Made by a program: the position numbers and the translations under genes. A DNA stretch of 17,162 nt from a virus. Its lineage: Duplodnaviria; Heunggongvirae; Uroviricota; Caudoviricetes. Positions 1 to 16,093 of the stretch are shown one piece after another. Location: positions 1-17,162 of the IMG/VR virus record IMGVR_UViG_2579778634_000010. The stretch is one strand, 5' to 3'. Position 1 is the first letter of the stretch. The number at the start of each line of letters is the position of its first letter. Below the pieces are notes generated by a model. That model worked only from the letters and a program-made list of their open reading frames with translations. It made no database searches and was not told where the DNA came from.

Positions 1-299
1 CGTTCTGTCCAGAGGATGAGGGAGCGAACATTGCGGGCGATTTTCACAGAGTAACTTTCTGTTACCTCGCGGCTAACAGACTCGCTTAAAGATAGTCTGT
101 GCTTGAACTCACGTAGTTCATTCCCTTCCAACTTAAAGAAATGTTTTCCCTGTACAAATCGCGCAGAGTTACGGGAAAAATTCATTTTTATATTGACTGT
201 TTCAGTGCCATACAATTGCGCCAATAATTCTGTAGTAATTACGGGGATCTGGTTGTAGGCAATTGGGGAAAGAGTTTCAACGGAAATTTGAGTCGCCAT
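1..299 (-). CDS. ORF6N-domain antirepressor-like protein, partial (C-terminus beyond window start)
   Basis: Reverse-strand ATG at 299..297 preceded by GAGGG; my translation MATQISVETLSPIAYNQIPVITTELLAQLYGTETVNIKMNFSRNSARFVQGKHFFKLEGNELREFK fits the ORF6N pattern (LYG..T, RN..RF, GKHFF.L.G.EL). Open to position 1, so absent from the ORF track. Confidence 0.5.
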   Translation of the reverse strand, partial: MATQISVETLSPIAYNQIPVITTELLAQLYGTETVNIKMNFSRNSARFVQGKHFFKLEGNELREFKHRLSLSESVSREVTESYSVKIARNVRSLILWTE

Positions 300-593
300 G
301 ACAACGCCCTCTGGTTGATGAATTTAACTATCACCACCGTCAGGTGCAAATCTTTGGGTGGTGAGACGTACAGGGTTTGCACTACCGGATCAACCAACCG
401 GCGAGCCTTTCGGCTCCCCCATACGCCCCACCATAATTCAGATGTGCGTGTGCTTACGACAACAAAAAACACGCTCGCGGCGTGTGTCTGTCGCGGTTGA
501 ATATCCGGGGTGCAAATCCCGACGCCAGATTTTGCTGGCGTGCGAAGAATATAATCCCGGATATGTGTTGTCGTCAACATACCTTGAATGTAT

Positions 594-609
594 ATAACAA
601 ATTTGTTAT
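594..609. promoter_or_regulatory. Perfect 16-bp palindrome ATAACAAATTTGTTAT overlapping the toxin start codon; candidate operator
   Basis: Palindrome read directly from sequence; half-sites ATAAC/GTTAT match the phage operator half-sites but with 6-bp rather than 4-bp spacing. Confidence 0.4.
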
Positions 610-949
610 GTTTACTCTCATGAACTACATTATCGAATACTACAGTGACGAGGTTGAAGCTGAGATCCTTTCTCTTCCTGAGACCTTACAAGCCCGGTAC
701 ATTCGGTACACGGAGAAAATACGTATTTACGGAGCTAATCTTGGTTCCCCGCATACAGAGGCATTTGGCGACGGTTTGTTTGAAATCCGCCTTAAGGGCT
801 CGGAAGGCATAGGGCGTGTTTTTTACTGCACGCTAAAAGGAAAGCGAATCATTATGTTGCATAGCTTTGTAAAGAAAACGCAAAAAACTCCACCTGCCGA
901 GCTTAGAAAAGCTGAAACCAGAATGAAGGAGGTTAAGCATGACTGGTAA
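608..949 (+). CDS. RelE/ParE-superfamily toxin, HigB-like (Gp49-like)
   Basis: About 113 aa; MFTLMNYIIEYYSDEVEAEILSLPE...GRVFYCTLKGKRIIMLHSFVKKTQKTP typical of HigB/Gp49 toxins; overlaps the downstream HTH gene by 11 nt. Start uncertain (608 or 620); no clear SD. Confidence 0.65.
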   Translation: MFTLMNYIIEYYSDEVEAEILSLPETLQARYIRYTEKIRIYGANLGSPHTEAFGDGLFEIRLKGSEGIGRVFYCTLKGKRIIMLHSFVKKTQKTPPAELRKAETRMKEVKHDW

Positions 950-1247
950 ACGTACCCCACCTACCATGACACACGATGAAATGGTAGAAAAAATGTTGTC
1001 TAACCCCGCAGTAAAAGCAGAATACGACGCCATCGCCGATGAATTCGCACTACTTGATGAAATGCTGGCAGCACGAAAAGAAGCTGGCTTAACCCAGGCT
1101 GAAGTTGCTGAACGTATGGGAACAAAAGCGACTGCGATAACCAGAATGGAAAGCAATCTTGCATCAGGTACAAGCGGCCCATCATTTGCCACACTGAAAA
1201 AATTCGCCCGTGCTACAGGGAAAAAACTCCAGATCCGCTTCGTTTAA
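939..1247 (+). CDS. HTH XRE-family antitoxin, HigA-like
   Basis: 102 aa; AAGGAGG before ATG 939; HTH segment LTQAEVAERMGTKATAITRMES; toxin-first gene order typical of HigBA modules. Confidence 0.7.
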   Translation: MTGKRTPPTMTHDEMVEKMLSNPAVKAEYDAIADEFALLDEMLAARKEAGLTQAEVAERMGTKATAITRMESNLASGTSGPSFATLKKFARATGKKLQIRFV

Positions 1248-1301
1248 CTCTCCACTACCGCGCCGTCATTCTGGCGGCGCTTTACCCCAGAGAAATATCA
1301 A

Positions 1302-1547
1302 TCACCGGATTACCACATCCCACTCCGGCTCCTGCCATCTCAAATCCGGTGAATCATTTCTCTCAGGAATAACCATTACGTCCTTTTCCCTTCGCTCCCT
1401 TTCTATCGCCATCACAGCCAATGCTGTAACCATGATGTATTTTTGTTCGTCGGTTCCTGTTTCATAACGACGCATGAGGGTAAACTCGGGGCGATCAGTA
1501 ACCTCAATGATTTCGTTAATTTCTTTAATTTCGCGAGGAATATCCAT
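1302..1547 (-). CDS. Hypothetical small acidic protein (81 aa)
   Basis: ATG at 1547 with AGGAG 9 nt upstream on the - strand; its start overlaps the + strand start of the DUF4145 gene at an NcoI-like CCATGG; perfect 10-bp inverted repeat TCACCGGATT/AATCCGGTGA (1302..1311, 1343..1352) at its 3' end. Confidence 0.3.
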   Translation of the reverse strand: MDIPREIKEINEIIEVTDRPEFTLMRRYETGTDEQKYIMVTALAVMAIERERREKDVMVIPERNDSPDLRWQEPEWDVVIR

Positions 1548-2220
1548 GGGTTTAGTCTCCTTTGATATCACATGCCCGCACTGTTTAAAAGAGCGAGCTG
1601 TTATTGAGGCATTTGCCGAAAAACAAATTGAAAAAACACCTTTTTTTAACGTCGCTTTTGTATGCAGAAGTTGTCATCGAGGAGGTGTTGCTATTGTTGA
1701 AATCCCATCAGACCACTATCACGGTCCCATGGCGGAAAGCCAGAAAAAAGACCTCGATATTCTGATTTCAGGAAATAGCCAGTACCGTTTCCGCAAGATC
1801 TATCCTGTGGTCAAAAAAATTACCGCACCAGAATATACGCCCCCGGTTGCAGACCGTACTTTTGTTGAGGCAAAAGAGGATTTACAGAGGAGGCGGTACG
1901 ACACAGTGGTTATTCTTTGTCGCAGAGTCCTCGATATCTCCACGAAAAAACTGCTCGGCGATGAAGCAGGAAAAGAATCGCTGTCGCAACGTATTCAGAT
2001 GATTTACAAAAAAGGCCTGATCACTGAACAGATGAAGGAATGGGCTCATATTGTACGAATTGATGCCAATAAAGCAGTTCATACAGATGAAGTTTTCACA
2101 CCAATTGAGGCAAGCCAGATCCTGAGTTTTACCGAAATGTTTTTAGTCTACGCCTTCACTCTGCCTGCAATGGTGGAAGCCAGACGTGAACAAAAAAGAT
2201 CAGATTCAGCCTCTATATGA
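1546..2220 (+). CDS. Zinc-ribbon plus DUF4145-like domain protein; candidate anti-phage / exclusion gene
   Basis: 224 aa from ATG 1546 (GAGGA 6 nt upstream); N-terminal CPHC...CRSCH; C-terminal HIVRIDANKAVHTDEVFTPIEASQILSFTEMFLVYAF matches the DUF4145 signature as I remember it; opposite strand to the surrounding operon. Confidence 0.65.
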   Translation: MGLVSFDITCPHCLKERAVIEAFAEKQIEKTPFFNVAFVCRSCHRGGVAIVEIPSDHYHGPMAESQKKDLDILISGNSQYRFRKIYPVVKKITAPEYTPPVADRTFVEAKEDLQRRRYDTVVILCRRVLDISTKKLLGDEAGKESLSQRIQMIYKKGLITEQMKEWAHIVRIDANKAVHTDEVFTPIEASQILSFTEMFLVYAFTLPAMVEARREQKRSDSASI

Positions 2221-2252
2221 ATCACTTTTCTGAACACGTAAGCCCCCGTCAT

Positions 2253-2684
2253 TCACGACGGGGAGAACATCAATCCCTCTGCACTCCCTCGCCAGAATGC
2301 CAGCACACGCTGCATCGTTTCGCTGTTACGGCACTCGCGACAAATTGTGTTGTAGCGTCTGTCGTAGCGCCGTATTTCCCCATCTGGTAATGCCCGGATA
2401 AGGTCTGGATCAACGACAACCGGTTTCTTCGACTTTGCCCTTGAGAGTTTTTTGCGGGCATTTTGCCAGTCCTTACGAGCCTGTTCAGACGGGAATACTC
2501 CGTAACCGGAATTGTAAACATCACCACTGGCGGCCAGCTCCATGCATAAACGACCGACAGACGCATGACTGACACCAATTTCATCCGATAACTGCCGAAT
2601 CGTGCCTCGTCCGTTAAGGCGTACGAATTCCACGATCAGCCCCTTAATTTTTTCCCGCTCTTCTGGTGTAAATGCTCTTGTCAT
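2253..2684 (-). CDS. Hypothetical HTH-containing protein (143 aa)
   Basis: ATG 2684 with GGAGGT upstream; HTH-like segment TIRQLSDEIGVSHASVGRL; last gene of the leftward early operon in this window. Confidence 0.6.
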   Translation of the reverse strand: MTRAFTPEEREKIKGLIVEFVRLNGRGTIRQLSDEIGVSHASVGRLCMELAASGDVYNSGYGVFPSEQARKDWQNARKKLSRAKSKKPVVVDPDLIRALPDGEIRRYDRRYNTICRECRNSETMQRVLAFWRGSAEGLMFSPS

Positions 2685-2699
2685 AAGCACCTCCGGAGA

Positions 2700-3470
2700 T
2701 CACTTTGTTGTCGGTGAATGAACCGGAATATCAGCAATCGAACTGAAAATATCCCGGTGTTTATTCAGCTCCCGCAGCGCGGCGCAGACTCGCTCCCACT
2801 TCTGAACATCACTTTTCGCCCTGCGCAGCGCCAGGTTTGCCCTGCGCAGGGACGGAAAAATCAGCTCATCTGCTTGCGTTTCGGTAAACGATGGCAACGA
2901 CTGCACAATGTCCGCCACAGTTTCTGTTTTAATTTCTTCCTGTGTTGCGGCTTCCCGGACTGGTAACGCAGCACCTGCTGGCTGAGGAAAGGCCTTACCA
3001 TCATTTTCCGTTACCGGCGCGGTTTTCGGATCTGCTGGTAAATTACCCCCCGGCATGCAGTAACGAAATTTACCGTTCTGATTAACGCGTGCCAGCCGCC
3101 CCGTTGCGGTTACCACCGCCAGCGTGGAAGCAACCTTGCGAGTGGTAACTCCGAACTTACCCGCTATTTCTTCACAGGTTTTAGCCCCCTCCTGAGAGAT
3201 AAACTCAATCATCATGTCAGCGCTAACTTTTGGAGCGACCTCTTCGGTCAGCATATCCTGTGTTTCAGATTTTACTGGCCGCTCTTCGGTTACCCGGGAT
3301 TCACCTTCGACAGCCAGAAACCAGGTGTGACCCGTTTTATCAACAACGCCATTTTTTTTGAGTTCCCACAGTTCGTTGAGAACTTCTTCACGGCTGATAT
3401 CAAGCCGCGCCGCCAGTTCAACAGAATTGGCTTTTCCCATCGCTTTCAGTGCATGCAATACGGTTTCCAT
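2700..3470 (-). CDS. Hypothetical winged-helix-like prophage protein (256 aa); possibly DUF1627-type
   Basis: ATG 3470 with GAGGT 9 nt upstream; directly downstream of the DnaC-like gene; family name is from memory only. Confidence 0.65.
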   Translation of the reverse strand: METVLHALKAMGKANSVELAARLDISREEVLNELWELKKNGVVDKTGHTWFLAVEGESRVTEERPVKSETQDMLTEEVAPKVSADMMIEFISQEGAKTCEEIAGKFGVTTRKVASTLAVVTATGRLARVNQNGKFRYCMPGGNLPADPKTAPVTENDGKAFPQPAGAALPVREAATQEEIKTETVADIVQSLPSFTETQADELIFPSLRRANLALRRAKSDVQKWERVCAALRELNKHRDIFSSIADIPVHSPTTK

Positions 3471-3495
3471 CGAAAATTTACCTCGTCAAAAATTC

Positions 3496-4236
3496 TCACA
3501 TACCCTGACGTCCAACGTTTGACCGCCAGCTCTCCCAGTTAAAATTCACCCAACGACCACCATTCATGGTCATACGGTCCATCACTCGCTCCCCCAGAAG
3601 CCTGCTCATCGCACCGTGATTCAGGTTAGTCAGCATCCCGACACTGCGCAGTGATGCCGTTCTGCGGTCGACGATCTGGTTCAGTATGACCTGCTCGTTG
3701 CGCGTATCCCGCTGCATGCCAATTTCATCAAGGACCAGAAGGTCAACTCCACAAAGCTCCTGTAAAAATTTTTCCCCGGACTTGCCGTTGTCGTAGCCGT
3801 CATGCAACACACTCATGACATCGGACACGGTGACGATAATCACGCTTCTCCCCTTCGCCATTAGCCAGTTGCCAATCGCTGCTGCAAGGTGATTTTTCCC
3901 GGTGCCAGGTTTACCGCTGAACACGAAATTCGTGCAGCCGGTATGCAGCTCTGCCGCGATGGATTTTGCCTGACTCAGAGCATGGCGCTGACCGTCGTTC
4001 TGCACCCGGTAGTTCCCGAATGAGCACTTCCTGTGAAGCGGCTGGATGCCCGAACGGTTCAGGATTTTTTCAACCCGCGCCTGATGATTCAGGCGGTTAA
4101 TTTCCTCGCTGCGCTTACGGCCCTCAGCCAGTTGCCATTCCCGCCATTCGTCGGTCGTCCGGAACGGTGCTGCCACGTGCGGTGGTGCCAGACGGCGCAC
4201 CCGTTCAAGAATCCCTCCTGTCGAAATGTTTTTCAT
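3496..4236 (-). CDS. DnaC-like helicase loader (IstB-type AAA+ ATPase)
   Basis: 246 aa; Walker A GKPGTGKNHLA, Walker B LLVLDEIG; start 6 nt after the stop of the O-like gene. Confidence 0.85.
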   Translation of the reverse strand: MKNISTGGILERVRRLAPPHVAAPFRTTDEWREWQLAEGRKRSEEINRLNHQARVEKILNRSGIQPLHRKCSFGNYRVQNDGQRHALSQAKSIAAELHTGCTNFVFSGKPGTGKNHLAAAIGNWLMAKGRSVIIVTVSDVMSVLHDGYDNGKSGEKFLQELCGVDLLVLDEIGMQRDTRNEQVILNQIVDRRTASLRSVGMLTNLNHGAMSRLLGERVMDRMTMNGGRWVNFNWESWRSNVGRQGM

Positions 4237-4242
4237 GGCTGA

Positions 4243-5343
4243 TTACCCCCTGAAACCCGGCGGAATTTCGGTGTCCGGTTCAGAAATGTGATTCACGCAA
4301 CGCAGGCTGACTGCGCCAGCCTTCGGCAGCGACCACGGATTTTCGAAATTCCTGTTCGGGCCAAAAAACGTCGATGCCTGCTGAACAAATTCAGTTCCCG
4401 CTTTCCCGGTAGCCTCCAGGTATCTTGCGTAACGCCTCACGCCATCCAGCACGACATCCGGTGACACCCCTTCGCGTAATCTGGCCCTCCAGGCATTGAA
4501 CGCGGATTTCTTCGGGTTTGACCCTGCCCGATGCGGATATTCACGCCAGACCCGTTCGAACACGTCAGGATAATCAACTCGTCCCGCAGACGGTCCCGGC
4601 ATCGCCCGGGTTAACCCAATCGGCTTCCCGCTCATCGCGGAATCGGCTTCAGGCTGCTGCGGTTGGCGTTGTTGCTCCGGTTCGACGATCAGCACCTGCT
4701 GCACACAACGCCCGGAATCTGCTTCCGGTGTCGTGCCAGCTGGTCCTGGACGTTCAGTCAGAACAGGACAAAAATCCCCCTGCGGGTCCGTGGCGATTTT
4801 TTCGCCATGGACCAGAAGGGTTTTATCCCTTTCCTGTTCTTGTTCTTGTTCCTGTTCCTGTTCCTGTTCCTGTTCTTGGCTTGAAAGGGGCTCTGAAGGG
4901 GCTTCAATTTTCCGACATGATTCACGTCTGACATCCAGGTGGAAATCATCCTTATATCTATCATAAAAGGATGATAAAAAAGGATTTTCCAGCAACGCGG
5001 AATATTCATTTCTTACCCCAGCACAACGGTTATCGCCAGGTTTCAGCGATTCACCAACCTGCCATGCTGCCATTTCATGCACCCATACAACCTCAGAATC
5101 ATGGTCATAGCTGCAAAAACCAGCCTCGCAAGCCATTTGAAGCCCCTTAGAAGCCCCTTCAGGATCAAGTCCGGTTTCGTGAGCAATGTACAAAACAGGC
5201 AGGTAATAAAGGCCCAGCATATTGGAATGAGGCGAGGTCATCATATACAACGCCACTACCATACATTCCGGACCAGACTTCCTTAGTTTTCTCCCTGTTT
5301 CGCCTAACCAGAACTGAGGTGAAATTGTTGCGTAATTACGCAT
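4243..5343 (-). CDS. Replication initiation protein, O-like (YdaU/DUF1376-type) with internal (EQ)n tract
   Basis: 366 aa; position between the cII-like and DnaC-like genes; N-terminus MRNYATISPQFWLGETGRKL; acidic EQEQEQ tract; family assignment from memory. Confidence 0.7.
   Translation of the reverse strand: MRNYATISPQFWLGETGRKLRKSGPECMVVALYMMTSPHSNMLGLYYLPVLYIAHETGLDPEGASKGLQMACEAGFCSYDHDSEVVWVHEMAAWQVGESLKPGDNRCAGVRNEYSALLENPFLSSFYDRYKDDFHLDVRRESCRKIEAPSEPLSSQEQEQEQEQEQEQEQERDKTLLVHGEKIATDPQGDFCPVLTERPGPAGTTPEADSGRCVQQVLIVEPEQQRQPQQPEADSAMSGKPIGLTRAMPGPSAGRVDYPDVFERVWREYPHRAGSNPKKSAFNAWRARLREGVSPDVVLDGVRRYARYLEATGKAGTEFVQQASTFFGPNRNFENPWSLPKAGAVSLRCVNHISEPDTEIPPGFRG
4834..4875. repeat. 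Hexanucleotide tandem repeat (CTGTTC/TTGTTC) x7 encoding (EQ)n on the - strand
   Basis: Seven consecutive 6-bp units read directly; in frame within the O-like CDS. Confidence 0.9.
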
Positions 5344-5483
5344 AGTCCCCTCGCATACAAGATTTACTCCATACCGCAGACGGTCCCGGTATCTCCCGGG
5401 TTAACCCAATCGGCTTCAGGCTGCTGCGGTTGGTGTTGTTGCTGGCGAAATTCTTCCAGATGTGGCAGAATTATTCCCGTGTA

Positions 5484-5560
5484 TTGCTCCATGCCCTGCC
5501 TGAATATCAGATATTCATCAGGATTTGCTCAGAACGTCCGGCCCCAACCGGACGTTTTTT
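5484..5560 (+). ncRNA. oop: OOP-like antisense RNA overlapping the 3' end of the cII-like gene
   Basis: 3' portion CAUCAGGAUUUGCUCAGAACGUCCGGCCCCAACCGGACGUUUUUUAUU closely resembles the lambda oop 3' end as I remember it; terminator stem 5534..5541/5548..5555 plus U-run 5555..5560; antisense to the last ~18 codons of cII. The 5' end is placed by analogy to the 77-nt lambda RNA. Confidence 0.6.
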
Positions 5561-5803
5561 ATTTGCATGAACGTTAATGGCATGCTGGAAAGCCCGGCTG
5601 ATCGGACTGATATCAGATGCCATCTGAAACGCGCATAAAATCGCCGCGATGTATCGCCAGTCGGTACGACTGACCTTCGATTCATGGCAGCCAATCATCT
5701 TCGCCAGTCCCCTTTGCGTCAGAGCTGACAGGTTGATAAGTAAATCCGTTTCAGCGCGATCGATATCGCGCTGTGACAGTTTGCTGTAACTTGTTTGTGA
5801 CAT
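5507..5803 (-). CDS. cII: CII-like transcriptional activator
   Basis: 98 aa; C-terminus HANKKRPVGAGRSEQILMNI resembles lambda CII (TNKKRPAATERSEQIQMEF); AGGAAA 8 nt upstream; position after cro and nutR. Confidence 0.8.
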   Translation of the reverse strand: MSQTSYSKLSQRDIDRAETDLLINLSALTQRGLAKMIGCHESKVSRTDWRYIAAILCAFQMASDISPISRAFQHAINVHANKKRPVGAGRSEQILMNI

Positions 5804-5871
5804 TTGTTAATTTTCCTATATTGATATGGGGTTAAGCGGCAATCCCCAATGGGTTTGCCACTGATGTTTGC

Positions 5872-5912
5872 TCACCCTGTTAGAGGTGAACGACCAGCAA
5901 TGTTAAAGAGCG
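5872..5912 (-). promoter_or_regulatory. nutR candidate: boxA CGCTCTTTAA (5912..5903) plus boxB hairpin (5889..5872)
   Basis: On the - strand GCTCTTTAACATTG is shared with the nutL candidate; it is followed by a 5-bp stem with an 8-nt loop containing CUAA; lies just after the cro stop, as nutR does in lambda. Confidence 0.55.
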
Positions 5913-5919
5913 GTGTTAC

Positions 5920-6144
5920 TTATTCAGCCTGGTTCGGATGAGGAAACAGGTGCGGTAAGTCCGGGCGAATTTCGTAAGCCTTAACCTGACCATTGGTGGC
6001 ATTAACGATAGCGAAAACTTTTTCAGGAGAAACTTTTCCGCCTCGCAACCATTTATGAACAGCGGGCTGTGATACGCCGCAATCAGCTGCAAGTCGTTTT
6101 TGACTGCCAACAATATTCAAGGCTCGCTGAATCACTAAATTCAT
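5920..6144 (-). CDS. cro: Cro-like HTH repressor
   Basis: About 75 aa from ATG 6144 (AGAGGT upstream); HTH QKRLAADCGVSQPAVHKWLRG; divergent from the cI-like gene across the operator region. Confidence 0.75.
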   Translation of the reverse strand: MNLVIQRALNIVGSQKRLAADCGVSQPAVHKWLRGGKVSPEKVFAIVNATNGQVKAYEIRPDLPHLFPHPNQAE

Positions 6145-6170
6145 GAGCATACCTCTACAGCAAATAAAGC

Positions 6171-6254
6171 ATAACCAAAAATAACATGAGTTATACACCA
6201 GGGCAATAACAATTGTTGTTTTACTTTTGATAACCGTGGTTATAGATTACAGGT
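6171..6254. promoter_or_regulatory. OR-like region: three operators (6181..6194, 6206..6219, 6230..6243) with divergent PR/PRM
   Basis: Sites ATAACATGAGTTAT, ATAACAATTGTTGT, ATAACCGTGGTTAT spaced 24-25 bp; extra half-site ATAACC at 6171; TAGATT at 6243..6248 ends 7 nt before the cI ATG (lambda PRM -10 is TAGATT); TATAAC on the - strand overlaps the cro-proximal site. Confidence 0.7.
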
Positions 6255-6962
6255 ATGAAAACATTCGCAGAAAGACTAAATGCCGCCATGAGTTCAGCCG
6301 GGTTGTCACAAGCACAACTTGCAGACATGGTGGGGGTATCACAACCAGCCATACAAAAGATGTCATCTGGTAAAACAACCGGATCACGTAAAATGGTCGA
6401 ATTAGCCAACGCGTTAAGAGTTCGCCCTGAATGGCTAAGCTCTGGTATAGGGTCAATGAGACCACAGAGCGCAGAAGAGCCATCTAATGCTCGGGAATCA
6501 TCTTTAAAAGCTATCGCCTGGGATGATCATCAAAATGATAATGACGAATTTGTTGCGCTCCCCCTTCTAAATATTTCACTTTCAGCTGGCGGAGGAAGTT
6601 GTGCATTGGAGGAGTCCGCAGAATTCTCTCTAGTTTTTAGGCGCTATTACCTGAAAAAAATGGGAGTTCCAGAAAAAGCGGCAAAGTTGGTCAGGGTTGT
6701 TGGGCAAAGCATGGAGCCAACACTCCATGATGGTGATGTGGTGGGGGTAAACACGCAAGATACGAGCATCAGGGATGGTAAAACATATGCAATTTGCCAA
6801 GCTGATTTGTTAAGGGTAAAAACGCTCATAGCCACGCCAACATCGGTAATTATCAGATCGATAAACCGCGAAGAGTATCCTGATGAAGTAATGAACAGAG
6901 AAGAATTCTACAAAAACGTAAGAATCATAGGGCGAGTGTTCTGGTCATCACATAGCTGGTAA
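6255..6962 (+). CDS. cI: CI-like repressor (N-terminal HTH, C-terminal S24/LexA-type autoprotease domain)
   Basis: 235 aa; HTH LSQAQLADMVGVSQPAIQKM; catalytic Ser in GQSMEP and Lys in LLRVKTL; no SD, so probably leaderless as in lambda. Confidence 0.85.
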   Translation: MKTFAERLNAAMSSAGLSQAQLADMVGVSQPAIQKMSSGKTTGSRKMVELANALRVRPEWLSSGIGSMRPQSAEEPSNARESSLKAIAWDDHQNDNDEFVALPLLNISLSAGGGSCALEESAEFSLVFRRYYLKKMGVPEKAAKLVRVVGQSMEPTLHDGDVVGVNTQDTSIRDGKTYAICQADLLRVKTLIATPTSVIIRSINREEYPDEVMNREEFYKNVRIIGRVFWSSHSW

Positions 6963-7086
6963 TCAGACTCCAACTGAACTTTTGCTATAAGAACACTCAC
7001 GAAGAACGGCCTTTTATTGTGCTCAATACCACCGATGGTAAACCATTCGCCAAGTAGCCAATTCATAAAATGCCATTTCTAAATCC

Positions 7087-7112
7087 CCCGGCTCCAGTGC
7101 CGGGTTTTATTT
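7087..7112. terminator. Intrinsic terminator between convergent cI-like gene and the 7115..7336 gene
   Basis: Stem CCCGGC/GCCGGG with 6-nt loop followed by TTTTATTT on the + strand; U-rich on the - strand as well. Confidence 0.6.
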
Positions 7113-7114
7113 AC

Positions 7115-7336
7115 TTAATTACACAGTCGCATATCCTGAAGTAACACATCTATAGCTAACTTCACAGCGAGATCATCCAATTCATCATGGTGAAGCACTC
7201 GGATCATTCCCGCAATAGCATCTGCTGAAATAGCTTCCCCAGTAGCAATAACCTCAAGCAACGACACCCCTAGAATTTCGACTACCCGCTGGTGCAACAC
7301 ACCAAATTCCCCTTCGATTAACATGCAATCACCCAT
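7115..7336 (-). CDS. Hypothetical small protein in the rex-equivalent slot, antisense to cI
   Basis: About 73 aa from ATG 7336 (alternative ATG 7324; the track ORF starts at a TTG at 7381); terminator directly after its stop; no family recognised. Confidence 0.45.
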   Translation of the reverse strand: MGDCMLIEGEFGVLHQRVVEILGVSLLEVIATGEAISADAIAGMIRVLHHDELDDLAVKLAIDVLLQDMRLCN

Positions 7337-7410
7337 AACAATCAGCCTTTCCCCCTTGAAAATATCACGCGGATACCACAAAAAATAAAATATTTTTGTT
7401 ATCAGTCATT

Positions 7411-7472
7411 TATAACGTTTTTCATAAAATGATAAATATAGTTATTGCACAACCAGATAACTTAGGTTATCT
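7411..7472 (+). promoter_or_regulatory. OL-like operators (7431..7444, 7456..7469; weaker 7411..7424) and pL candidate
   Basis: ATAAATATAGTTAT and ATAACTTAGGTTAT share the OR consensus and 25-bp spacing; candidate -35 TTGCAC 7444..7449 and -10 TATCTT 7467..7472. Confidence 0.55.
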
Positions 7473-7518
7473 TCAATTCAACAGCAGGACGCTGGAAGCC
7501 AAACGGAACAGATTGGCC

Positions 7519-7559
7519 GGCTCTTTAACATTGATGGACTCTCAACCTAATCGTTGAGA
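7519..7559 (+). promoter_or_regulatory. nutL candidate: boxA GCTCTTTAA (7520..7528) plus boxB hairpin (7540..7559)
   Basis: GCTCTTTAACATTG shared with nutR; stem TCTCAAC/GTTGAGA with loop CUAAUC; between pL and the N-like gene. Confidence 0.55.
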
Positions 7560-7669
7560 CCAAAATCTAAGTGATTTTGGGGATGACGCGAATTTCAGTT
7601 GCAAGGCCGCGATCGAGAAGAAAAACACCTCGACGCGTCATACACCAAAGCCACTTAAAGGAGACCATC

Positions 7670-7975
7670 ATGGTAACCATAATCTGGAAAGAATCCAAAG
7701 GTACGGCAAAAAGCCGCTATAAAGCTCGCAGGGAAGAACTTATTGCAGAGCGACGCAGTAGTGAAAGACTGACACGGAAGATTGCGCTAAAGATCTCTGG
7801 TTGCGTCGGAGCAGACAAAGCAGTATCACTCGGAAGCCTTCGCTGCAAGAAGGCAGAAGAAGTCGAGAGTAAACAGAACCGTATTTACTACCGCAAACCA
7901 CGCAGTGAAATGGGTGTGACTTGCTCAGGCCGCCAGAAACAACGCGGAAAATCAATTCCGGCTTATTACGATTGA
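7670..7975 (+). CDS. N: N-like transcription antiterminator
   Basis: 102 aa from ATG 7670 (AAGGAG 6 nt upstream); arginine-rich N-terminus KSRYKARREELIAERRSSERLTRK; C-terminus YYRKPRSEMGVTCSGRQKQRGKSIP resembles lambda N (WYSKPGERGITCSGRQKIKGKSIP). Confidence 0.8.
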   Translation: MVTIIWKESKGTAKSRYKARREELIAERRSSERLTRKIALKISGCVGADKAVSLGSLRCKKAEEVESKQNRIYYRKPRSEMGVTCSGRQKQRGKSIPAYYD

Positions 7976-7980
7976 GGTTA

Positions 7981-8265
7981 ATGATGAAGTTCAAATTGAA
8001 CGATGAAGTTAAATGGTCAAGCTCATCAAACGGTGTAACGAAGGTAAAAATCGGGTTTATCGTCGAGGTGATTCCTCCTGGTGTCAACGTAAAAAAATTC
8101 GAACTAGGCCGTCTGCTAGATGCACCTGGCCTTCCGAGGAAAGAAGAGAGCTATATAGTTTGTGTAGGTTCAAGACCCGGATCTCGTGCCAAGCCAAAAT
8201 ATTACTGGCCGCGAGTTAATAACCTGCGTCGATTACAACAAAAAACTTGCGCCCTTAAAACTTGA
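7981..8265 (+). CDS. Hypothetical protein (94 aa)
   Basis: ATG 7981 with GAGG just upstream, 5 nt after the N stop; no family recognised. Confidence 0.55.
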   Translation: MMKFKLNDEVKWSSSSNGVTKVKIGFIVEVIPPGVNVKKFELGRLLDAPGLPRKEESYIVCVGSRPGSRAKPKYYWPRVNNLRRLQQKTCALKT

Positions 8266-8371
8266 AATTCTTCAGGCCGCCGGAAAAATGCAGCTTAAAC
8301 TGGACGAATTCATCGACTGTATGGATGAAATGAATAAAGCAGTTCAGAAGCTTAAAGAGCTGACCGCCTGA
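8186..8371 (+). CDS. Small ORF of uncertain start (61 aa from GTG 8186, or 27 aa from ATG 8288)
   Basis: Overlaps the 3' end of the previous gene in another frame; no convincing SD; helical KAVQKLKEL C-terminus. Confidence 0.25.
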   Translation: MPSQNITGRELITCVDYNKKLAPLKLEILQAAGKMQLKLDEFIDCMDEMNKAVQKLKELTA

Positions 8372-8402
8372 TATTAATAAATTGCAACTACCGGAGTTAA
8401 CT

Positions 8403-8762
8403 ATGAATGAAACAGAACTGAAGCACATTATCGCCCTGCTTCTGGAAGATGCCAGACAGGTTTATCGACTTAGCCCAAATTCCGCAACGCAGGAACGCAT
8501 CCGGATAGCGGAAACAGCACTGAAACAGGACAATGGAAACGGCATATCCAAATTTAGCGCCGCCAGTGAAAATGAAGTAATAGAAATAAACAGCAATATC
8601 AGCGACAGTTGCGTCGCTTACAGCCACCAAATAATTCGTGTAAGTGCAAGAATAATGGAAGTGATGGCAAGTGAGCTTGAAAAGAACAACATCAAGCCCA
8701 CTGATTGTTGTTTAAGAACCGTAATGAACGTTATTTATTACTCGATGTTCCGAAGTCGCTAA
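8403..8762 (+). CDS. Hypothetical protein (119 aa)
   Basis: ATG 8403 with GGAG 6 nt upstream; no family recognised. Confidence 0.6.
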   Translation: MNETELKHIIALLLEDARQVYRLSPNSATQERIRIAETALKQDNGNGISKFSAASENEVIEINSNISDSCVAYSHQIIRVSARIMEVMASELEKNNIKPTDCCLRTVMNVIYYSMFRSR

Positions 8763-8940
8763 CAGCGTCGAGTTTTTCATTAAAAAATGATTCAAATGCA
8801 TCGTAAAATACGGCAATAGCACCGCCCTTATCTACCGCGGCAGGAACTGCCTTTTGAGGTATATCTTTCTCCGTAAATTGTGTGTTGTAAGTATCGACAG
8901 CCAGCCGCATCAGAAACATCACTTTTTCTTCTTGTGTCAT
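8731..8940 (-). CDS. Hypothetical 69-aa protein on the opposite strand inside the pL operon (sieB-equivalent slot)
   Basis: ATG 8940 preceded by AAGGAGAG; 3' end overlaps the 8403..8762 gene by 32 bp; a ~440-bp noncoding region lies upstream. Confidence 0.55.
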   Translation of the reverse strand: MTQEEKVMFLMRLAVDTYNTQFTEKDIPQKAVPAAVDKGGAIAVFYDAFESFFNEKLDAVSDFGTSSNK

Positions 8941-9164
8941 AAATTCACTCTCCTTACGGGGTTTGTAGTTGAGGAGTTCTCCACGGGTGAGGTGGAGATC
9001 GTGCGCCGGACACGGGTGAGTTCCTGCACTCTCAGTTTACTGAACAGACATTACCCTGAAAGCCAGGGTACTACACGAAAGCGCGAGGCGAAGACTCTTT
9101 CCCATAGAAGGATTGTCGTTAGATTTCTTCGACCGTGCGCTTCCGGTTGTGAATAACAACATTG

Positions 9165-9220
9165 CTGTGTGTAACCCTTGGCGGATATCGGTTTGCCGAT
9201 TGCTGATGTCCGCCCTTTTT
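9165..9220 (+). ncRNA. DicF-like small RNA candidate
   Basis: UUGGCGGAUAUCGGUUUGCCGAUUGCUGAUGUCCGCCC followed by UUUUU (stem 9180..9185/9209..9214); resembles the DicF body and terminator as I remember them; sits just upstream of a cell-division-inhibitor-like gene. The 5' end is not defined. Confidence 0.4.
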
Positions 9221-9396
9221 AAAGTGAATTTTGTGATGCGGTGAATGCGGCTATGCGCACGCGGAACAGTTAAACCGACAGGATGTCACGGAAAGTCATC
9301 GTCCCCTGACCCGGCGTTAGTTGTTAACTGGTTAACGTCACCTGGAGGCACCAGGCACCGCATCAACAAAGTTCATTTGTGAAAATGGAGATAATT

Positions 9397-9618
9397 ATGA
9401 TTGCTCATCACTTCGGAACTGATGAAATACCACGTCAGTGCGTGACGCCTGGCGATTATGTTCTTCATGAAGGTCGGACATATATCGCTTCAGCAAACAA
9501 TATTGAAAAGAGAAAACTCTATATTCGTAACTTCACAACAAAAACATGCATTACCGACTGCATGATTAAAGTTTTCATCGGGCGCGATGGCTTACCCGTA
9601 AAAGCAGCGTCGTTGTGA
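9397..9618 (+). CDS. KilR-like small protein (candidate cell-division inhibitor)
   Basis: 73 aa from ATG 9397 (GGAG 6 nt upstream), the length of Rac KilR; position between the accessory genes and the recombination genes; identity from memory, not searched. Confidence 0.5.
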
Positions 9619-9701
9619 CGAGTAATAAAATACACCTTCCATATCTGTAACAGACAAGCCGAAATAAAACCGCATTAATTATCAATCACGGAAAAATCAA
9701 A

Positions 9702-10088
9702 ATGAAAGAACTTGCGCAAAATGAAATATTTTCCGAAACCAGTCCTGATGCAATAAATGAACTCAAAGAAATTGCAGAACGCATCAGTAAAATATGCAAA
9801 GAATACAAAATCGACTTTGTATTTTCTTTTTCAGTGCTTACAGAAGTTGGAAATAACGAATATAAGGACAGTCGTTTTGTTTTATGTGGGTTAAATGGCA
9901 AAACACCAAGCCCATATATTCATGCTGCACGTGAAGTCGTCAGAAGCAACATTGGAGTACAACAAATCCATACACTGGCGCAGGCTCTTGAGTTTGCAAG
10001 AGAAAATTCCGAGTGCGACTGCCCTGAATGCCAGCACGAAAAGGGAAAAACAACTCACAAAACAGCAAACCAGGCAACCTTCCACTGA
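9702..10088 (+). CDS. Hypothetical protein with C-terminal CDCPECQ Cys cluster (128 aa)
   Basis: Complete ORF, weak SD; sits where racC/ydaE lie in Rac-type prophages. Confidence 0.55.
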   Translation: MKELAQNEIFSETSPDAINELKEIAERISKICKEYKIDFVFSFSVLTEVGNNEYKDSRFVLCGLNGKTPSPYIHAAREVVRSNIGVQQIHTLAQALEFARENSECDCPECQHEKGKTTHKTANQATFH

Positions 10089-10095
10089 AATAAAA

Positions 10096-10122
10096 ATCCG
10101 GCAGCGCAGGCTACCGGATTTC
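10096..10122 (+). terminator. Weak hairpin / possible antiterminated terminator between genes
   Basis: Stem ATCCGG/CCGGAT with 12-nt loop followed by TTT; U-tract is short. Confidence 0.25.
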
Positions 10123-10195
10123 TCCCTGCGTCACCGTATTCGGAGAAATCAGACAAAGGGCCGCTAATTCTAATCCAGCCAGAGGTTTAAATACA

Positions 10196-12268
10196 ATGAG
10201 CGCTGATAAACAGACTTTTGCACTACACTGCGAAGCAAAAAACGATAAAGTCAGAAAACGCCTTGGCATCAAAGGCGGTTTTTTCTGGACCGAGGCCAGA
10301 AAACTTTCTGTCGCAGTTTCCCGCTGCATTGCAGCCATGGACGATGCAGGCTACGACGAGGATGATTTCAAAAAACCCGTTCGCGTAAATTTCCCCGTCG
10401 TGAATGACCTTCCACCGGAAGGCGTGTTTGATACTGAATTCTGCAACCGCTATGAAAAAGGCGGTAACGATGGCATCACCATGATGGCTATCCCCTTCGA
10501 TGACAACATCAACGGTGAAGATGCCACAACTGCTGGCGATGACAACGATAACCTGGACGGAACTATTCCGGATGATGTGGAGAAAAGCGAATCCCCGGAC
10601 AGCGACGATGACTGTTCTGAGTGTGAAATTCCCGTCGCCACTCTGAGCCTTACTCATCGCTTCCTTCACCTCTTCTTATTCAGCAAAGATGAAGATGGAA
10701 AATACCGGCATCATGCCACACCAGAACAACGCAATAACGTGATCCGTATGGAGATGGACACAGAGGACAGTTACCTTCAGAGCCTGCTTACTGCTGTGCG
10801 CGCCGCGCATCATGAACTGGATAAACTGACGAACTATCACCTTAGTCGCCTGGCTGAATCTGTAGGGAAAGCATTCCCCCACTCTGCAAATCATCGCATC
10901 AGCCCGGCTGAATTCGACAAGTTCATTTCCACCTGGATGAAAACTGACTACCTTGATCAGGGCCTGCTGACAAAAGAATGGCAGAACGGAAATTATGTTT
11001 CAGGCATTACCCGTACGCCTTCCGGTGCTAACGCTGGCGGCGGAAATATTACCGATCGTGGTGAAGGATTCAAACATGATAAGACATCACTCGCACGAGA
11101 TGTAGCCACCGGCGTTCTGGCCCGTTCAATGGATGTGGATATTTATAACCTGCACCCAGCACACGCAAAACGCGTTGAAGAAATCGTGTCAGAGAATAAG
11201 CCGCCCTTTTCTGTTTTTCGCGACAAATTTATCGCCATGCCCGGTGGGCTGGATTATTCCCGCGCCATTGTGGTGGCTTCCGTGAAAGAAGCACCAATCG
11301 GCATTGAGGCCATCCCGGCACGCGTGACTGAATATCTCAACAAAGTGTTGACCGAAACCGATCACGCTAACCCGGATCCGGAAATCGTGGAAATTGCCTG
11401 CGGTCGCTCATCAGCACCGATGCCGCAGCGCGGAACAGCAGAAGGAAAACATGGCGATGAAGAAAAGCAACAAGCATCGGACACAATGGCTAATGAACAG
11501 GCAGCGCCTGAATCAGTGGAAGAAATTCCAGTTAAACATAATGAGGACACGCAATCACTGGAAAATGTCTCATCTGTAGAAACGAAATACCAGGAACTGA
11601 GGGAGGAACTCAATAAAGCCAGGGAAAACATCCCCCCAAAAAATCCAGTCGATGCCGACAAATTACTGGCTGCCTCGCGTGGAGAATTCGTTGAAGGCAT
11701 CAGTAACCCTGCTGATCCGAAGTGGGTTAAGGGGATCCAGACTCGCGACACTGAGGACCAGAATCAGTCCAAAGTGGAACAAATTGCCCCAGAAGCGGGA
11801 CAAAACAGCCCGGATACGCAACAAAACGGGCCAGAAGAGCAACAGCCAGGGCCAGTAATGCAACAGGAAGTGGAAAAGGTTTGCACCACATGCAGTCAGA
11901 ACGGTGGCGGCCATTGCCCTGACTGTGGTCCAGTAATGGGAGATGAAACTTACGCTGAAACTTTTGGAGAAAATGACGCCGCTGATGGAGAAGACTCAGC
12001 ACAAACTGAGGAGAAGATCATTCAGGAAAACTCTGTTGATGCCGCTCAGGAGGGCGAAACCGTTGTTCAGAACGAGCCAGGCAGTGATACGTCCGGCGAT
12101 GACGCCAATTCTGAGCCAGTAACTCTCGACTGGAAAAGACAGCTCGTGATTGCCGCCGTCTATGGTTTGTGCGCCAACCCCGCATGTATAGCCACAGCGC
12201 CAGCAATCCCTGATATCGCCATCATGATTGCCAACAGGCTTGAAAATTTCGGAGGTGATAAATCATGA
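10196..12268 (+). CDS. Large acidic low-complexity protein (690 aa), possibly related to the RecE N-terminal region, without a nuclease domain
   Basis: Uninterrupted 2073-nt ORF; D/E-rich tracts; CxxC...CxDC near the C-terminus; stop overlaps the gam start (ATGA); the RecE resemblance is from memory. Confidence 0.8.
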
Positions 12269-12561
12269 ATGCCTGGCTTATCCCCGATCGCATTGAAGAG
12301 CAGTCATGGGCACGACACTACCAGCAAATTGCCCGTGAAGAAACTGAAGCTGAGCTGGCAGACGACCTGGAAAAAGGTCTGCCCCAACACCTGTTTGAAT
12401 CGCTATGCATCGATAATCTGCAACGTCACGGGGCCAGCAAAAAAGCTATTTCCCGTGCATTTGATGACGATGTCGATTTTCAGGAACGCATGGCAGAACA
12501 CATCCGCTACATGGCTGAAACCATCGCCCGTCACCAAATTAATATTGATTCAGAGGTATAA
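12265..12561 (+). CDS. gam: Gam, host RecBCD inhibitor (short GamS-length form)
   Basis: 98 aa; [50 protein letters not shown] close to lambda Gam; GGAGGT 8 nt upstream. Confidence 0.9.
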
Positions 12562-12566
12562 AACGG

Positions 12567-13352
12567 ATGAGTACAGCACTCGCAACGCTGGCAGGGAAGC
12601 TGGCTGAACGTGTCGGCATGGATTCTGTCGACCCACAGGAACTAATCACCACTCTTCGCCAGACGGCATTTAAAGGTGATGCCAGCGATGCGCAATTTAT
12701 CGCATTGTTGATCGTCGCCAACCAGTACGGCCTTAATCCCTGGACGAAAGAAATTTACGCCTTCCCTGACAAGCAAAACGGCATCGTTCCGGTGGTTGGC
12801 GTTGATGGCTGGTCCCGCATTATCAATGAAAACCAGCAGTTTGATGGCATGGACTTTGAGCAGGACAATGAGTCCTGTACATGCCGGATTTACCGCAAAG
12901 ATCGCAATCACCCGATCTGCGTTACCGAGTGGATGGATGAATGTCGCCGCGCACCATTCAAAACCCGCGAAGGCAGAGAAATCACCGGACCGTGGCAGTC
13001 GCATCCCAAACGGATGTTACGGCACAAAGCCATGATTCAGTGTGCTCGCCTGGCCTTCGGATTTGCTGGCATCTATGACAAGGATGAAGCCGAGCGTATT
13101 GTCGAAAATACTGCATATACTACAGAACGTCAGCCGGAACGCGACATCACCCCGGTTAACGAAGAAACCATGTCGGAAATTAACGCCCTTCTTACTTCCA
13201 TGGAAAAAACGTGGGATGACGACCTGTTGCCGCTCTGTTCCCAGATTTTTCGCCGCAACATTTACACATCTTCAGAACTAACACAGGCTGAAGCTGTGAA
13301 GGTTCTTGGATTCCTGAAACAGAAAGTCACAGAGCAGAAGGTAGCAGCATGA
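12567..13352 (+). CDS. bet: Bet (Red-beta) single-strand annealing protein
   Basis: 261 aa, near-identical to lambda Bet as remembered ([50 protein letters not shown]...). Confidence 0.95.
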
Positions 13353-14026
13353 CACCGGACATTATCCTGCAACGTACAGGGATCGACGTGAGAGCTGTCG
13401 AACAGGGGGATGATGCGTGGCACAAATTACGGCTCGGCGTCATCACCGCTTCAGAAGTTCACAACGTGATAGCAAAACCCCGCTCAGGAAAGAAATGGCC
13501 TGACATGAAAATGTCCTACTTCCACACCCTGCTGGCTGAGGTTTGCACCGGTGTGGCTCCGGAAGTTAACGCTAAAGCGCTGGCCTGGGGAAAACAGTAC
13601 GAGAACGACGCCAGAGCCCTCTTTGAGTTCACTTCCGGCGTGAATGTTACTGAATCCCCGATCATCTATCGCGACGAAAGTATGCGCACCGCTTGCTCTC
13701 CCGATGGTTTATGCAGTGACGGCAACGGCCTTGAACTGAAATGCCCGTTTACCTCCCGGAATTTCATGAAATTCCGGCTCGGTGGTTTCGAGGCCATAAA
13801 GTCGGCTTACATGGCCCAGGTGCAGTACAGCATGTGGGTGACACGAAAAGATGCCTGGTACTTTGCCAACTATGACCCGCGTATGAAGCGTGAAGGACTG
13901 CATTATGTCGTGGTCGAACGGGATGAAAAATACATGGCTGGTTTTGACGAAATGGTGCCAGAGTTCATCGAAAAAATGGACGAGGCACTGGCTGAAATTG
14001 GTTTTGTATTTGGGGAGCAATGGTGA
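13349..14026 (+). CDS. exo: Exo (Red-alpha) 5'-3' exonuclease
   Basis: 225 aa, near-identical to lambda Exo as remembered ([54 protein letters not shown]...); ATGA overlap with bet. Confidence 0.95.
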
Positions 14027-14077
14027 TAGCCAGTAGCAACGAGGTGCAAATGATATGACAATTAAGGAATACTACCG

Positions 14078-14329
14078 GTGTTCGTTCTAATCCAGCGCGG
14101 GCAGTCTTTCGTCGATGCCAACAACTATCCGGTTGAAGTCTGCAAAATCACTCTGACGCAGGTAATCTTCCGCAGGCTGGATGGGAGAACCAGAGCCGCT
14201 TCAATTAGCGCATTTAATGCAGAATTTGAGCGAATCGATCACAACGAACTACACATGATTAAAGCAGAAATTGAGAAGGAAAAGCATATTGCCAGCCTTC
14301 GAAAAATGCGCCGCATATCAATCAACTGA
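14078..14329 (+). CDS. Hypothetical small ORF (83 aa, GTG start)
   Basis: No SD; only support is the strong intrinsic terminator 2 nt after its stop. Confidence 0.3.
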   Translation: MFVLIQRGQSFVDANNYPVEVCKITLTQVIFRRLDGRTRAASISAFNAEFERIDHNELHMIKAEIEKEKHIASLRKMRRISIN

Positions 14330-14330
14330 C

Positions 14331-14351
14331 AACCGCCTTCGGGCGGTTTTT
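14331..14351 (+). terminator. Intrinsic terminator with UUCG tetraloop upstream of xis
   Basis: AACCGCC-TTCG-GGCGGTT followed by a T-run to 14351. Confidence 0.7.
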
Positions 14352-14363
14352 AATGGCGAAAAT

Positions 14364-14735
14364 ATGGATTCACACAGTATCACCCTCAAAGAGGCCTGTA
14401 AGTTTCTCAAGATATCAAGGCCAACAGCTGTTAACTGGATACGAACGGGCCGACTACAGGCAACCCGAAAAAATTCTTCCGGTAAAAGATCACCTTATCT
14501 CACAACCCGGCAAGCCTGCATTGCAGCACTTCATTCACCGCTGCATACTGTCCAGGTGAGCGCGGGTGATGGCATAACAGAGGAAAGAAAATGTCACTCT
14601 TCCGCAGAGGTGAAATATGGTACGCCTCGTACTCGCTCCCGGGCGGGAAGCGAATTAAGGAGTCTCTTGGCACAAAGGACAAGCGGCAAGCTCAGGAGTT
14701 GCACGACAAGCGAAAAGCAGAACTCTGGCGAGTAG
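14364..14735 (+). CDS. xis: Excisionase (Xis/YdaQ-like)
   Basis: N-terminal [31 protein letters not shown] is a typical excisionase HTH; the ORF stays open 145 nt into int, so the C-terminal extent is uncertain. Confidence 0.6.
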
Positions 14736-15754: not shown

Positions 15755-15886
15755 GTAATTGAATTAGAATGAGTTAAGCTCACGCTTTCAAGTGGTGAGC
15801 AACAACTTTAAAGTTGGTTACGTATCGTTTAAAATCAATTAGATAGCCCGTCATTTCTGCGCTCACACGTCCCAACATTGAAAAAC

Positions 15887-15920
15887 ATGCAAAGCTTTGT
15901 AAGCCGATGCAAAGCTTTGT
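15887..15920. repeat. Two 14-bp direct repeats ATGCAAAGCTTTGT (15887..15900, 15907..15920), each with palindrome CAAAGCTTTG
   Basis: Read directly; 20-bp periodicity, 130 bp downstream of int; candidate arm-type or regulator sites. Confidence 0.5.
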
Positions 15921-16009
15921 GTGTCTCACTTTTGTCCCAATACCAATCCGAATCCACCCTTTGTCATCATTGAGAAATGGCAAGGAAGAAAAGGATGTTA
16001 CTGCACGAT

Positions 16010-16039
16010 TTGACAAATCCGCCAGAGCTATCGCATACT
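16010..16039 (+). promoter_or_regulatory. Promoter candidate TTGACA-N18-CATACT upstream of ant cassette 1
   Basis: Consensus -35 TTGACA (16010..16015); matched by TTGACG-N18-TATACT (16520..16549) at the equivalent place in cassette 2. Confidence 0.4.
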
Positions 16040-16065
16040 GATCGCACTGAACAAATAAGCGGTCT

Positions 16066-16093
16066 CCGCACCCGATAGCTTTGCGGCTTTTTT
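16066..16093 (+). terminator. Intrinsic terminator in the leader of ant cassette 1
   Basis: Stem CCGCA/TGCGG followed by CTTTTTT; about 50 nt downstream of the promoter candidate. Confidence 0.6.

Follow-up and report, generated by a model that had tools for sequence, protein, structure and literature searches.

Why does part of a prophage's replication gene recur in the spacer upstream of that same gene? The question is raised by a 17,162-nt stretch of Caudoviricetes DNA (IMG/VR record IMGVR_UViG_2579778634_000010, positions 1 to 17,162; hereafter, the window), in which a fragment of an O-like gene lies between cII and this gene and is crossed by a 42-codon open reading frame (ORF). An earlier note on this DNA had proposed two answers, namely that the fragment may be a scar from replication-module exchange or that it may consist of repeats linked to the origin, given that the lambda origin (ori) lies inside O.

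The reading that we consider probable is that of a non-functional duplication scar, by now a hypervariable tandem repeat, located at a module junction. It builds on features that are directly observed: the repeat and its boundaries, the copy-number alleles of relatives, a derivative that has undergone deletion, an ORF free of coding constraint, and a left flank homologous to lambda. Other readings assign to the fragment a role in cis, in RNA or as a coding sequence, and are discussed below together with the evidence that bears on them.

Organization of the region

The early rightward operon of a lambdoid prophage occupies the minus strand of the window (Table 1). The closest phage records are of the Stx type, namely PhiR5_2, phiSTEC1589-Stx1c and the Shigella phages POCJ13 and 75/02 Stx. 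As the earlier note had reported, the fragment occupies part of the cII-O intergenic spacer, and the unique segment between the fragment and the O-like gene is conserved across all alleles of the array described below. A Pfam search with the product of the O-like gene gave no match. As a separate observation, the megablast homology of several Stx1a-converting phages (Stx1_9793 and others) spans window positions 5589-14351 and ends in the 3' third of cII, which suggests a mosaic breakpoint inside this gene (~5589), away from a gene boundary.

Table 1. Features of the cII-O region and of the repeat array (window coordinates unless a locus is named)
Feature	Position	Strand	Basis or remark
DUF1627/YdaW-like gene	2700-3470	-	
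DnaC/IstB-like loader	3496-4236	-	
O-like initiator/organizer gene, 366 aa	4243-5343	-	phrog_1701 'DnaD-like helicase loader', E = 3.8e-154
Internal source copy in the O-like gene	4584-4676	-	gene nt 668-760, aa 223-253
GAAGCCCCTT clusters	4883-4907; 5137-5161	-; +	11-bp phasing
Unique spacer	5344-5373	-	ORF stop TAA (5364-5366) and ribosome-binding site GAGGGGA of the O-like gene
42-codon ORF, 'hypothetical protein'	5364-5492	-	phrog_2751
Upstream (ectopic) copy of the O-linker segment, 70 bp, one-copy allele	5374-5443	-	repeat finder
Lambda-type cII-O junction remnant (oop 5' end, pO, vestigial lambda-O ribosome site/start)	5444-5506	.	alignments to lambda and 06-3462
Oop-like antisense RNA, predicted extent	5479-5561	+	lambda oop alignment and terminator scan
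cII	5507-5803	-	PF05269, E = 6.5e-26
Cro/YdaS-like gene	5920-6198	-	
cI-like repressor	6255-6962	+	
30-bp inter-unit spacers, three-copy allele	L003 2352-2384, 2465-2497		
30-bp inter-unit spacer, two-copy alleles	e.g. L001 ~3135-3165		

A linker-coding segment is repeated upstream of its own gene

Two alignments returned by the repeat finder define the repeat, with positions 4584-4632 matching 5374-5422 (92%, offset 790) and positions 4641-4676 matching 5408-5443 (97%, offset 767). The two offsets differ by 23 bp and, once the alignments are joined across this gap, the copies mismatch at 3 of 70 positions (95.7% identity). A 22-mer common to both copies has exactly two occurrences in the window, whereas 200 shuffles yielded no instance of it even when three mismatches were tolerated. 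The 23 bp absent from the upstream copy form a block of the internal copy flanked by 10-bp direct repeats, AATCGGCTTC, at 4618-4627 and 4641-4650.

The description given in the earlier note, that is, a fragment of the O-like coding sequence repeated upstream at about 95% identity apart from a 23-bp block between 10-bp direct repeats, is therefore accurate, with two adjustments. First, the internal copy starts at 4584 as had been indicated, but it ends at 4676 and not at 4677, since 4677 and 5444 mismatch. Second, the upstream copy had been placed in a different frame from that of O, which holds for the 34 nt after the 23-bp gap but not for the cII-proximal 36 nt. The phases computed from the coordinates are the same for these 36 nt in both copies, the ORF reading QQQHQPQQPEAD where O reads EQQRQPQQPEAD.

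The boundaries of the unit are sharp, since its flanks and the 30-bp spacer found between tandem copies in relatives, when compared with O, score within the shuffled null. A weak MAFFT match between the ribosome-site region of the O-like gene and O nt ~790 falls within the same null distribution and was dismissed as chance. Visual inspection of the unit for CII (TTGC-N6-TTGC), LexA and DnaA boxes revealed nothing convincing.

The source segment encodes part of a low-complexity interdomain linker of variable length, which separates a conserved N-terminal domain (residues about 1-155) from a C-terminal domain (about 255-366). In homologues this linker is variable or absent, and the whole stretch is missing in one of them (L025). 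A further, functional homologue (L004, E. coli OkiPb01711, 2149-3195), compared with L017, shows a 24-bp in-frame deletion between short direct repeats, GAAGCCGAT; as these are equivalent to the repeats of the window gene, the short linker repeat is a recurrent slippage site. In the subtype to which the window gene belongs the repeats are spaced by 23 bp, so that the same deletion would shift the frame of the gene, and the frame-shifting 23-bp loss is found only in the upstream, unconstrained copies.

The possibility that the unit marks a boundary of shuffling between N- and C-terminal domains was considered and rejected. L004 carries an unrelated N-terminal domain, with YdaT replacing cII upstream, and this domain is joined near gene nt 500, close to the EQ repeat, and not at nt 667.

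The linker region holds other repeats in addition. A hexanucleotide, (GAACAG)n on the coding strand at 4831-4875, encodes an EQ-repeat linker and constitutes a second length-variable tract of the O-like gene, with 7.5 copies in the window, 4.5 in L003 and fewer in phiSTEC1589. This EQ repeat directly follows the second cluster of iteron-like motifs described below, a position that is kept in distant homologues. An older, degenerate duplication of the linker is represented by the peptides TPEADSG and QPEADSA (window 4690-4720 versus 4640-4665; O aa ~205-212 and 230-236). The linker region thus appears to have long been prone to repeat formation.

The fragment lies on the joint between two modules

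The left flank of the fragment was characterized by aligning the window with lambda (NC_001416) and with phage 06-3462, whose cI-cro-cII region is closely related to that of the window but whose O is of the lambda type. Window positions 5444-5561 are homologous to the 3' end of lambda cII, to the terminator, body and 5' end of oop, and to the ribosome site of O. The homology also covers the first ~12 codons of O (ribosome site and codons together forming a vestige at 5444-5492), with the lambda O ATG replaced by CTG in the window. A putative pO -10 element, CAGAAT, is found on the plus strand at 5466-5471, preceded by TG, which would place the oop start (+1) near 5479. Moreover, a terminator scan detected an intrinsic terminator followed by a T-run at 5531-5558 on the plus strand, inside the 3' end of cII. 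A consensus promoter scan did not call pO, and an Rfam search of window positions 3000-8000 (E up to 1) gave no match, oop included; since both were negative, the oop-like transcript is one that we infer from homology to lambda oop and from the terminator antisense to the cII 3' end. The same alignment and terminator support the proposal of the earlier note that the start of the 42-codon ORF is antisense to an oop-like RNA.

In lambda, the promoter pO sits inside the 5' end of O. For this reason a vestige of lambda O has been kept along with the cII-oop module, presumably because it contains the oop promoter. The first 16 codons of the 42-codon ORF coincide with this pO/oop sequence, and the O-derived fragment begins at the very next base (5443), at the position of the pO -35 element. 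As it starts right after the lambda homology, the fragment marks the precise point at which the lambda-type cII-oop-pO module gives way to replication genes of another kind, a DnaD-like organizer and a DnaC-like loader that together form a non-lambda module. The window therefore resembles the lambda cII-oop-pO-O region in the 3' end of cII, the oop terminator and body, the pO -10 element and the O start region, with oop antisense to the end of cII in both. Unlike in lambda, however, O is gone after ~12 vestigial codons and is followed by the repeat array and then by a non-lambda initiator. Of the two origins suggested earlier for the fragment, a scar from replication-module exchange is the one with which this arrangement agrees, as the homology to lambda ends at the pO -35 region and the fragment begins directly beside it.

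Copy-number alleles in relatives

Relatives carry one, two or three upstream tandem copies of the unit, two being the commonest number, and the repeat period is either 90 or 113 bp; the window represents the minority one-copy allele. Conservation of the fragment in related prophages had been suggested as a check, and the outcome is twofold: the repeat is present in relatives, and its copy number is variable. The spacer of phiSTEC1589-Stx1c exceeds that of the window by 90 bp and contains two tandem copies, annotated as a 72-aa hypothetical protein, and all six matching phage records have the two-copy form. IMG/VR was scanned twice, independently, with a query for the pO junction and one for the core of the unit. 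The junction scan retrieved 32 stretches, to which the unit scan added only 4, from four of the same contigs. Of the 32 contigs, 28 carry two upstream copies spaced by 90 bp and 3 carry a single one, and in the remaining one the sequence is cut by the contig end. As both scans gave the same contigs, junction and unit always occur together; in neither scan was the same pO junction joined to another downstream gene. The window allele is identical to the one-copy allele of the IMG/VR contigs, an allele that would be the expected product of recombination between the two copies of the common form.

A more distant array was found in E. coli 23CRST049 (L003), whose spacer is ~80% identical to that of the window. 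It has three copies in which the 23-bp block is kept, with a period of 113 bp, 2.7 copies and a 98% match according to TRF. Protein-database look-ups provided additional alleles, including a three-copy allele without the 23-bp block (102 aa, protein P0038), a sub-repeat-expanded allele with three extra 16-bp units (88 aa, protein P0037), and further ORF alleles of 38, 55, 61, 62, 67, 68, 81, 85 and 115 aa. The sub-repeat belongs to the 30-bp inter-unit spacer, which is itself a 16-bp tandem repeat, ATGTGCAGTCACACCA, in about two copies. Exact alleles were counted in 445 contigs for the 42-aa form, in at least 1000 for the 72-aa form and in 25 plus 8 for the 102-aa form. The element is present in 82 of 5426 complete E. 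coli genomes, always on the chromosome. Among the matches listed, seven complete E. coli genomes have the one-copy allele, six of them 100% identical to the window (H7-H12) and one 99.4% identical (H25).

These counts bear on the suspicion that the alleles are an artefact of assembly or sequencing. Assemblers can indeed collapse or expand tandem repeats, and some single copy-number calls may be wrong; yet the same alleles recur in complete genomes, the seven one-copy E. coli genomes included, in isolated phage genomes, and in hundreds to thousands of contigs. The probability that we attach to an artefact is accordingly close to negligible.

The locus behaves as a variable-number tandem repeat (VNTR). 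Copies of one unit follow each other head to tail in relatives, the window itself having a single copy, and one, two or three copies together with sub-repeat variants are found in a clade whose spacer is otherwise at least 99% identical. With minisatellite/VNTR loci and with duplications at phage mosaic junctions it shares head-to-tail copies, a number that varies between strains and a location at a module boundary; the nested 16-bp sub-repeats, concerted evolution and deletion between dispersed copies are further points of likeness to minisatellites. In contrast to the usual minisatellite, the unit comes from an adjacent essential gene. As a result, the array also amounts to a dispersed direct repeat across the initiator N-terminal domain and the origin. 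A literature search found no description of the array, and the papers on Stx-phage replication regions are silent on it.

Some observations count against the view of the array as a mere scar. It persists in two lineages that are ~20% apart in the cII-O spacer, every allele keeps at least one copy, and the copies change in concert. In particular, all four copies of L003 read GATGCC where all copies of the window clade read GAAGCC. The presence of GATGCC in all L003 copies is a case of concerted evolution, which fits gene conversion and also fits selection for matching sites. Moreover, all carriers of the O subtype of the window (at least 95% identity) also have the cII-pO module and the array, so that natural absence does not demonstrate its dispensability.

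Recombination between the upstream and internal copies

The consequences of having such a repeat on both sides of the first part of the O-like gene can be seen in two strains, E. coli SW071611 (L002, NZ_CM129855.1 2432052-2432463) and SW07163, in which ~790 bp are deleted between the copies. In SW071611 the cII stop is followed by pO, by a hybrid copy and then by the C-terminal part of O. The left side of the hybrid copy bears upstream-type signatures (ACACC and absence of the 23-bp block), while its right side bears the internal-type signatures GCGATGCC. O nt 1 to about 700 are missing, and with them the N-terminal domain and the iteron region; PGAP annotates the remnant beside cII as a frameshifted pseudogene without N-terminus. 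The order of these signatures indicates that recombination between the upstream and the internal copy destroyed the initiator gene in the SW071611 lineage.

The candidate origin lies outside the fragment

The alternative offered in the earlier note, repeats linked to the origin, was examined with about 86 homologues of the N-terminal domain (L005-L090), comprising 80 IMG/VR loci and 6 mostly betaproteobacterial genomes. Nearly all of these homologues, which belong to gamma- and betaproteobacterial prophages, share a 10-mer, GAAGCCCCTT, which recurs two or three times with 11-bp phasing at gene nt ~185/196 and again at ~440-470. The orientation of the first cluster is invariant, whereas that of the second depends on the lineage; because the second cluster flips, the encoded peptide is EAPSKPL in some lineages and EGASKGL in others, although the DNA motif itself is preserved. 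A further pair, located 27-38 bp before the start codon, is present in certain lineages. A literature search for the 10-mer retrieved only unrelated papers. In the window the two clusters flank an AT-rich trough at 4920-5009 (GC 0.32-0.33) with an inverted repeat at 4945-4975. The origin core is probably located at 4883-5161, outside the duplicated fragment, with the GAAGCCCCTT clusters as candidate iterons of an intragenic origin.

A weight matrix for this motif, which is circular because its sites were collected at no more than one mismatch, exceeds 9 bits at only four places in the 17-kb window. All four belong to the clusters at 4883-5161 and score 12.6-20.8 bits, as against 3.4-7.2 bits for the GAAGCCGATT of the unit. 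No stretch of the region is richer in GC than the unit (0.63-0.65), and the AT-rich trough lies ~240 bp from the internal copy and ~365 bp from the upstream copy; the clusters are at least 200 bp from the internal copy. Furthermore, homologues ~70% identical with other upstream genes (L017-L026), as well as L004 with its different N-terminal domain, keep the internal segment and have no upstream copy, which places the fragment outside the origin architecture of the family. The search for AT-rich and iteron features that had been recommended was thus positive at 4883-5161 and negative at the fragment, and the proposed link between the fragment and the origin is not sustained: the fragment differs from origin iterons in motif match, in adjacency to AT-rich DNA and in presence with the cognate initiator. 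Like the iterons of lambda ori, it is repeated DNA tied to an initiator gene, with a source copy in the interdomain linker-coding region. Unlike them, its units are GC-rich and 70-93 bp long rather than 18-19 bp, are not beside an AT-rich region, do not carry the family motif, have one set outside the gene, and occur in only one narrow clade.

A less direct role in cis can also be envisaged, with the units serving either as accessory sites, bound secondarily by the initiator or by a host factor, or as spacers setting the distance between pO and the origin, so that copy number would tune replication initiation, expression of O or the balance between oop and cII. The position of the units speaks for such a role, as they separate pO from the origin core and adjoin the pO -35 region on its upstream side; in lambda, plasmid replication drops strongly once as few as 6-10 bp are inserted between pO and ori (PMC3985674). 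Each unit also has a perfect 10-bp palindrome, GGGTTAACCC, its GAAGCCGATT agrees with the family 10-mer at 8 of 10 positions, and the upstream copies evolve in concert with the internal one. Nevertheless, the low score of the unit, which the GATGCC of the diverged lineage brings further from the motif, its GC content (0.65) away from the AT-rich trough, and the lack of upstream copies in homologues with other upstream modules argue against it. In addition, period (75, 90 or 113 bp), copy number and single-G indels vary freely among phages, and the six matching phage records are uniformly of the two-copy form. Any role in cis is, on balance, unlikely.

A specific version of this idea takes the array as a tuner that would move the convergent pO promoter nearer to or farther from the intragenic origin in steps of 90-113 bp, or would titrate a factor that also binds the internal copy. 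If so, copy-number alleles would set replication-initiation efficiency or the lysis-lysogeny bias in Stx-type prophages. Among the natural alleles, the distance from pO to the origin differs by 90-270 bp, whereas in lambda plasmid replication is strongly impaired by insertions of 6-500 bp at the corresponding place, and small ones are already harmful (PMC3985674). Such natural shifts would mean either that pO-ori coupling is absent in the chimeric module or that copy number modulates replication. We regard the tuner as quite unlikely.

At the RNA level, the fragment might provide a structure on the pR transcript that controls translation of the O-like gene, or a structure on the antisense strand. 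The unit does contain self-complementary parts (CCGCAG/CTGCGG, CCCGG/CCGGG and GGGTTAACCC), but the predicted folding is no better than that of shuffled sequences (z = -0.99 for the spacer and -0.14 for the internal copy), Rfam gave no match in window positions 3000-8000, and the ribosome site of the O-like gene is not consistently sequestered in the centroid structure. These results make a structural RNA element highly improbable.

The 42-codon ORF is most likely spurious

The ORF at 5492..5364 exists and translates as the earlier note had quoted it. It matches phrog_2751 (E = 1.2e-31), as does the 72-aa ORF of the two-copy allele over its full length, while Pfam and NCBIfam gave no match, the only family being a PHROG built from the same ORFs. 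A real small protein, or a leader peptide coupling cII to expression of the O-like gene, would be suggested by the ORF being called in thousands of genomes and forming a PHROG family, by the 90-bp copy changes, which preserve its frame, and by its setting, with a weak AGG 6 nt before an ATG that lies 14 nt past the cII stop, and a stop 20 nt before the ATG of the O-like gene.

The pattern of substitution points in the opposite direction. When the window is compared with L003, the opening 84 nt of the ORF show 0 synonymous and 5 non-synonymous differences, a small sample, as against 9 synonymous and 3 non-synonymous in cII and 5 and 1 in the N-terminal part of O; given the pooled ratio, 0 of 5 synonymous has a hypergeometric p of about 0.009. 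The L003 version of the ORF follows the O frame through the repeat and meets an early stop at codon 41, and the alleles of the window clade end in ...WVNPGDTGTVCGME, ...CEDVQSHQCAVTPTAAA or ...PGPSAVWSKSCMRGDYA, that is, in at least three frames. Both frame and length therefore vary, with alleles of 38-115 aa. Moreover, the N-terminal third overlaps pO and the start of oop, which accounts for its conservation, and the remainder is copied linker, half of it frame-shifted. Coding conservation, on which a claim that this ORF is a gene depends, thus fails. A functional small protein or leader peptide is very unlikely, the 42-aa ORF is most likely spurious, and phrog_2751 appears to collect translations of the repeat array rather than a conserved protein.

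An ancestral or fused gene running from MEQYTG... into the C-terminal domain was also sought. A hypothetical in-frame fusion used as query found only array ORFs and organizer fragments, and the only fusion encountered is the frame-shifted deletion pseudogene of SW071611.

A model for the formation of the array

In the duplication-scar reading, the order of events and the molecular mechanism that we infer would be as follows. A linker-coding segment of ~93 bp of the O-like gene would have been duplicated into the spacer preceding that gene, landing exactly where the cII-oop-pO module was joined to the module of the DnaD-like organizer and DnaC-like loader. In the lineage of the window, the ectopic copy would then have lost 23 bp by slippage between the two 10-bp direct repeats. 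Subsequently, the unit with its 30-bp spacer may have grown and shrunk by unequal recombination or slippage, giving rise to one, two or three copies, in a manner that is presumably neutral. Recombination between an upstream and the internal copy would remove ~790 bp, comprising the N-terminal domain and the iteron region, and inactivate the gene. The 42-aa ORF would be an accident of this history, with an ATG provided by the 5' end of oop and a frame that happens to run across pO into copied linker codons.

Implications for Stx-type prophages

The locus preserves a joint between lambda-type and non-lambda modules, down to the vestigial start of lambda O. For genome annotation, phrog_2751 is a problem, since this family is most likely no gene but the conceptual translation of the array, and it is called in E. 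coli contigs numbering well above a thousand. The array itself could serve as a typing marker for this group of Stx-type prophages. In the design of Stx-type mini-replicons, the origin would have to be placed at the GAAGCCCCTT clusters and the AT-rich region, and not at the repeat. Finally, the dispersed copies would represent a built-in route to inactivation of the replication gene and, in this way, to prophage decay.
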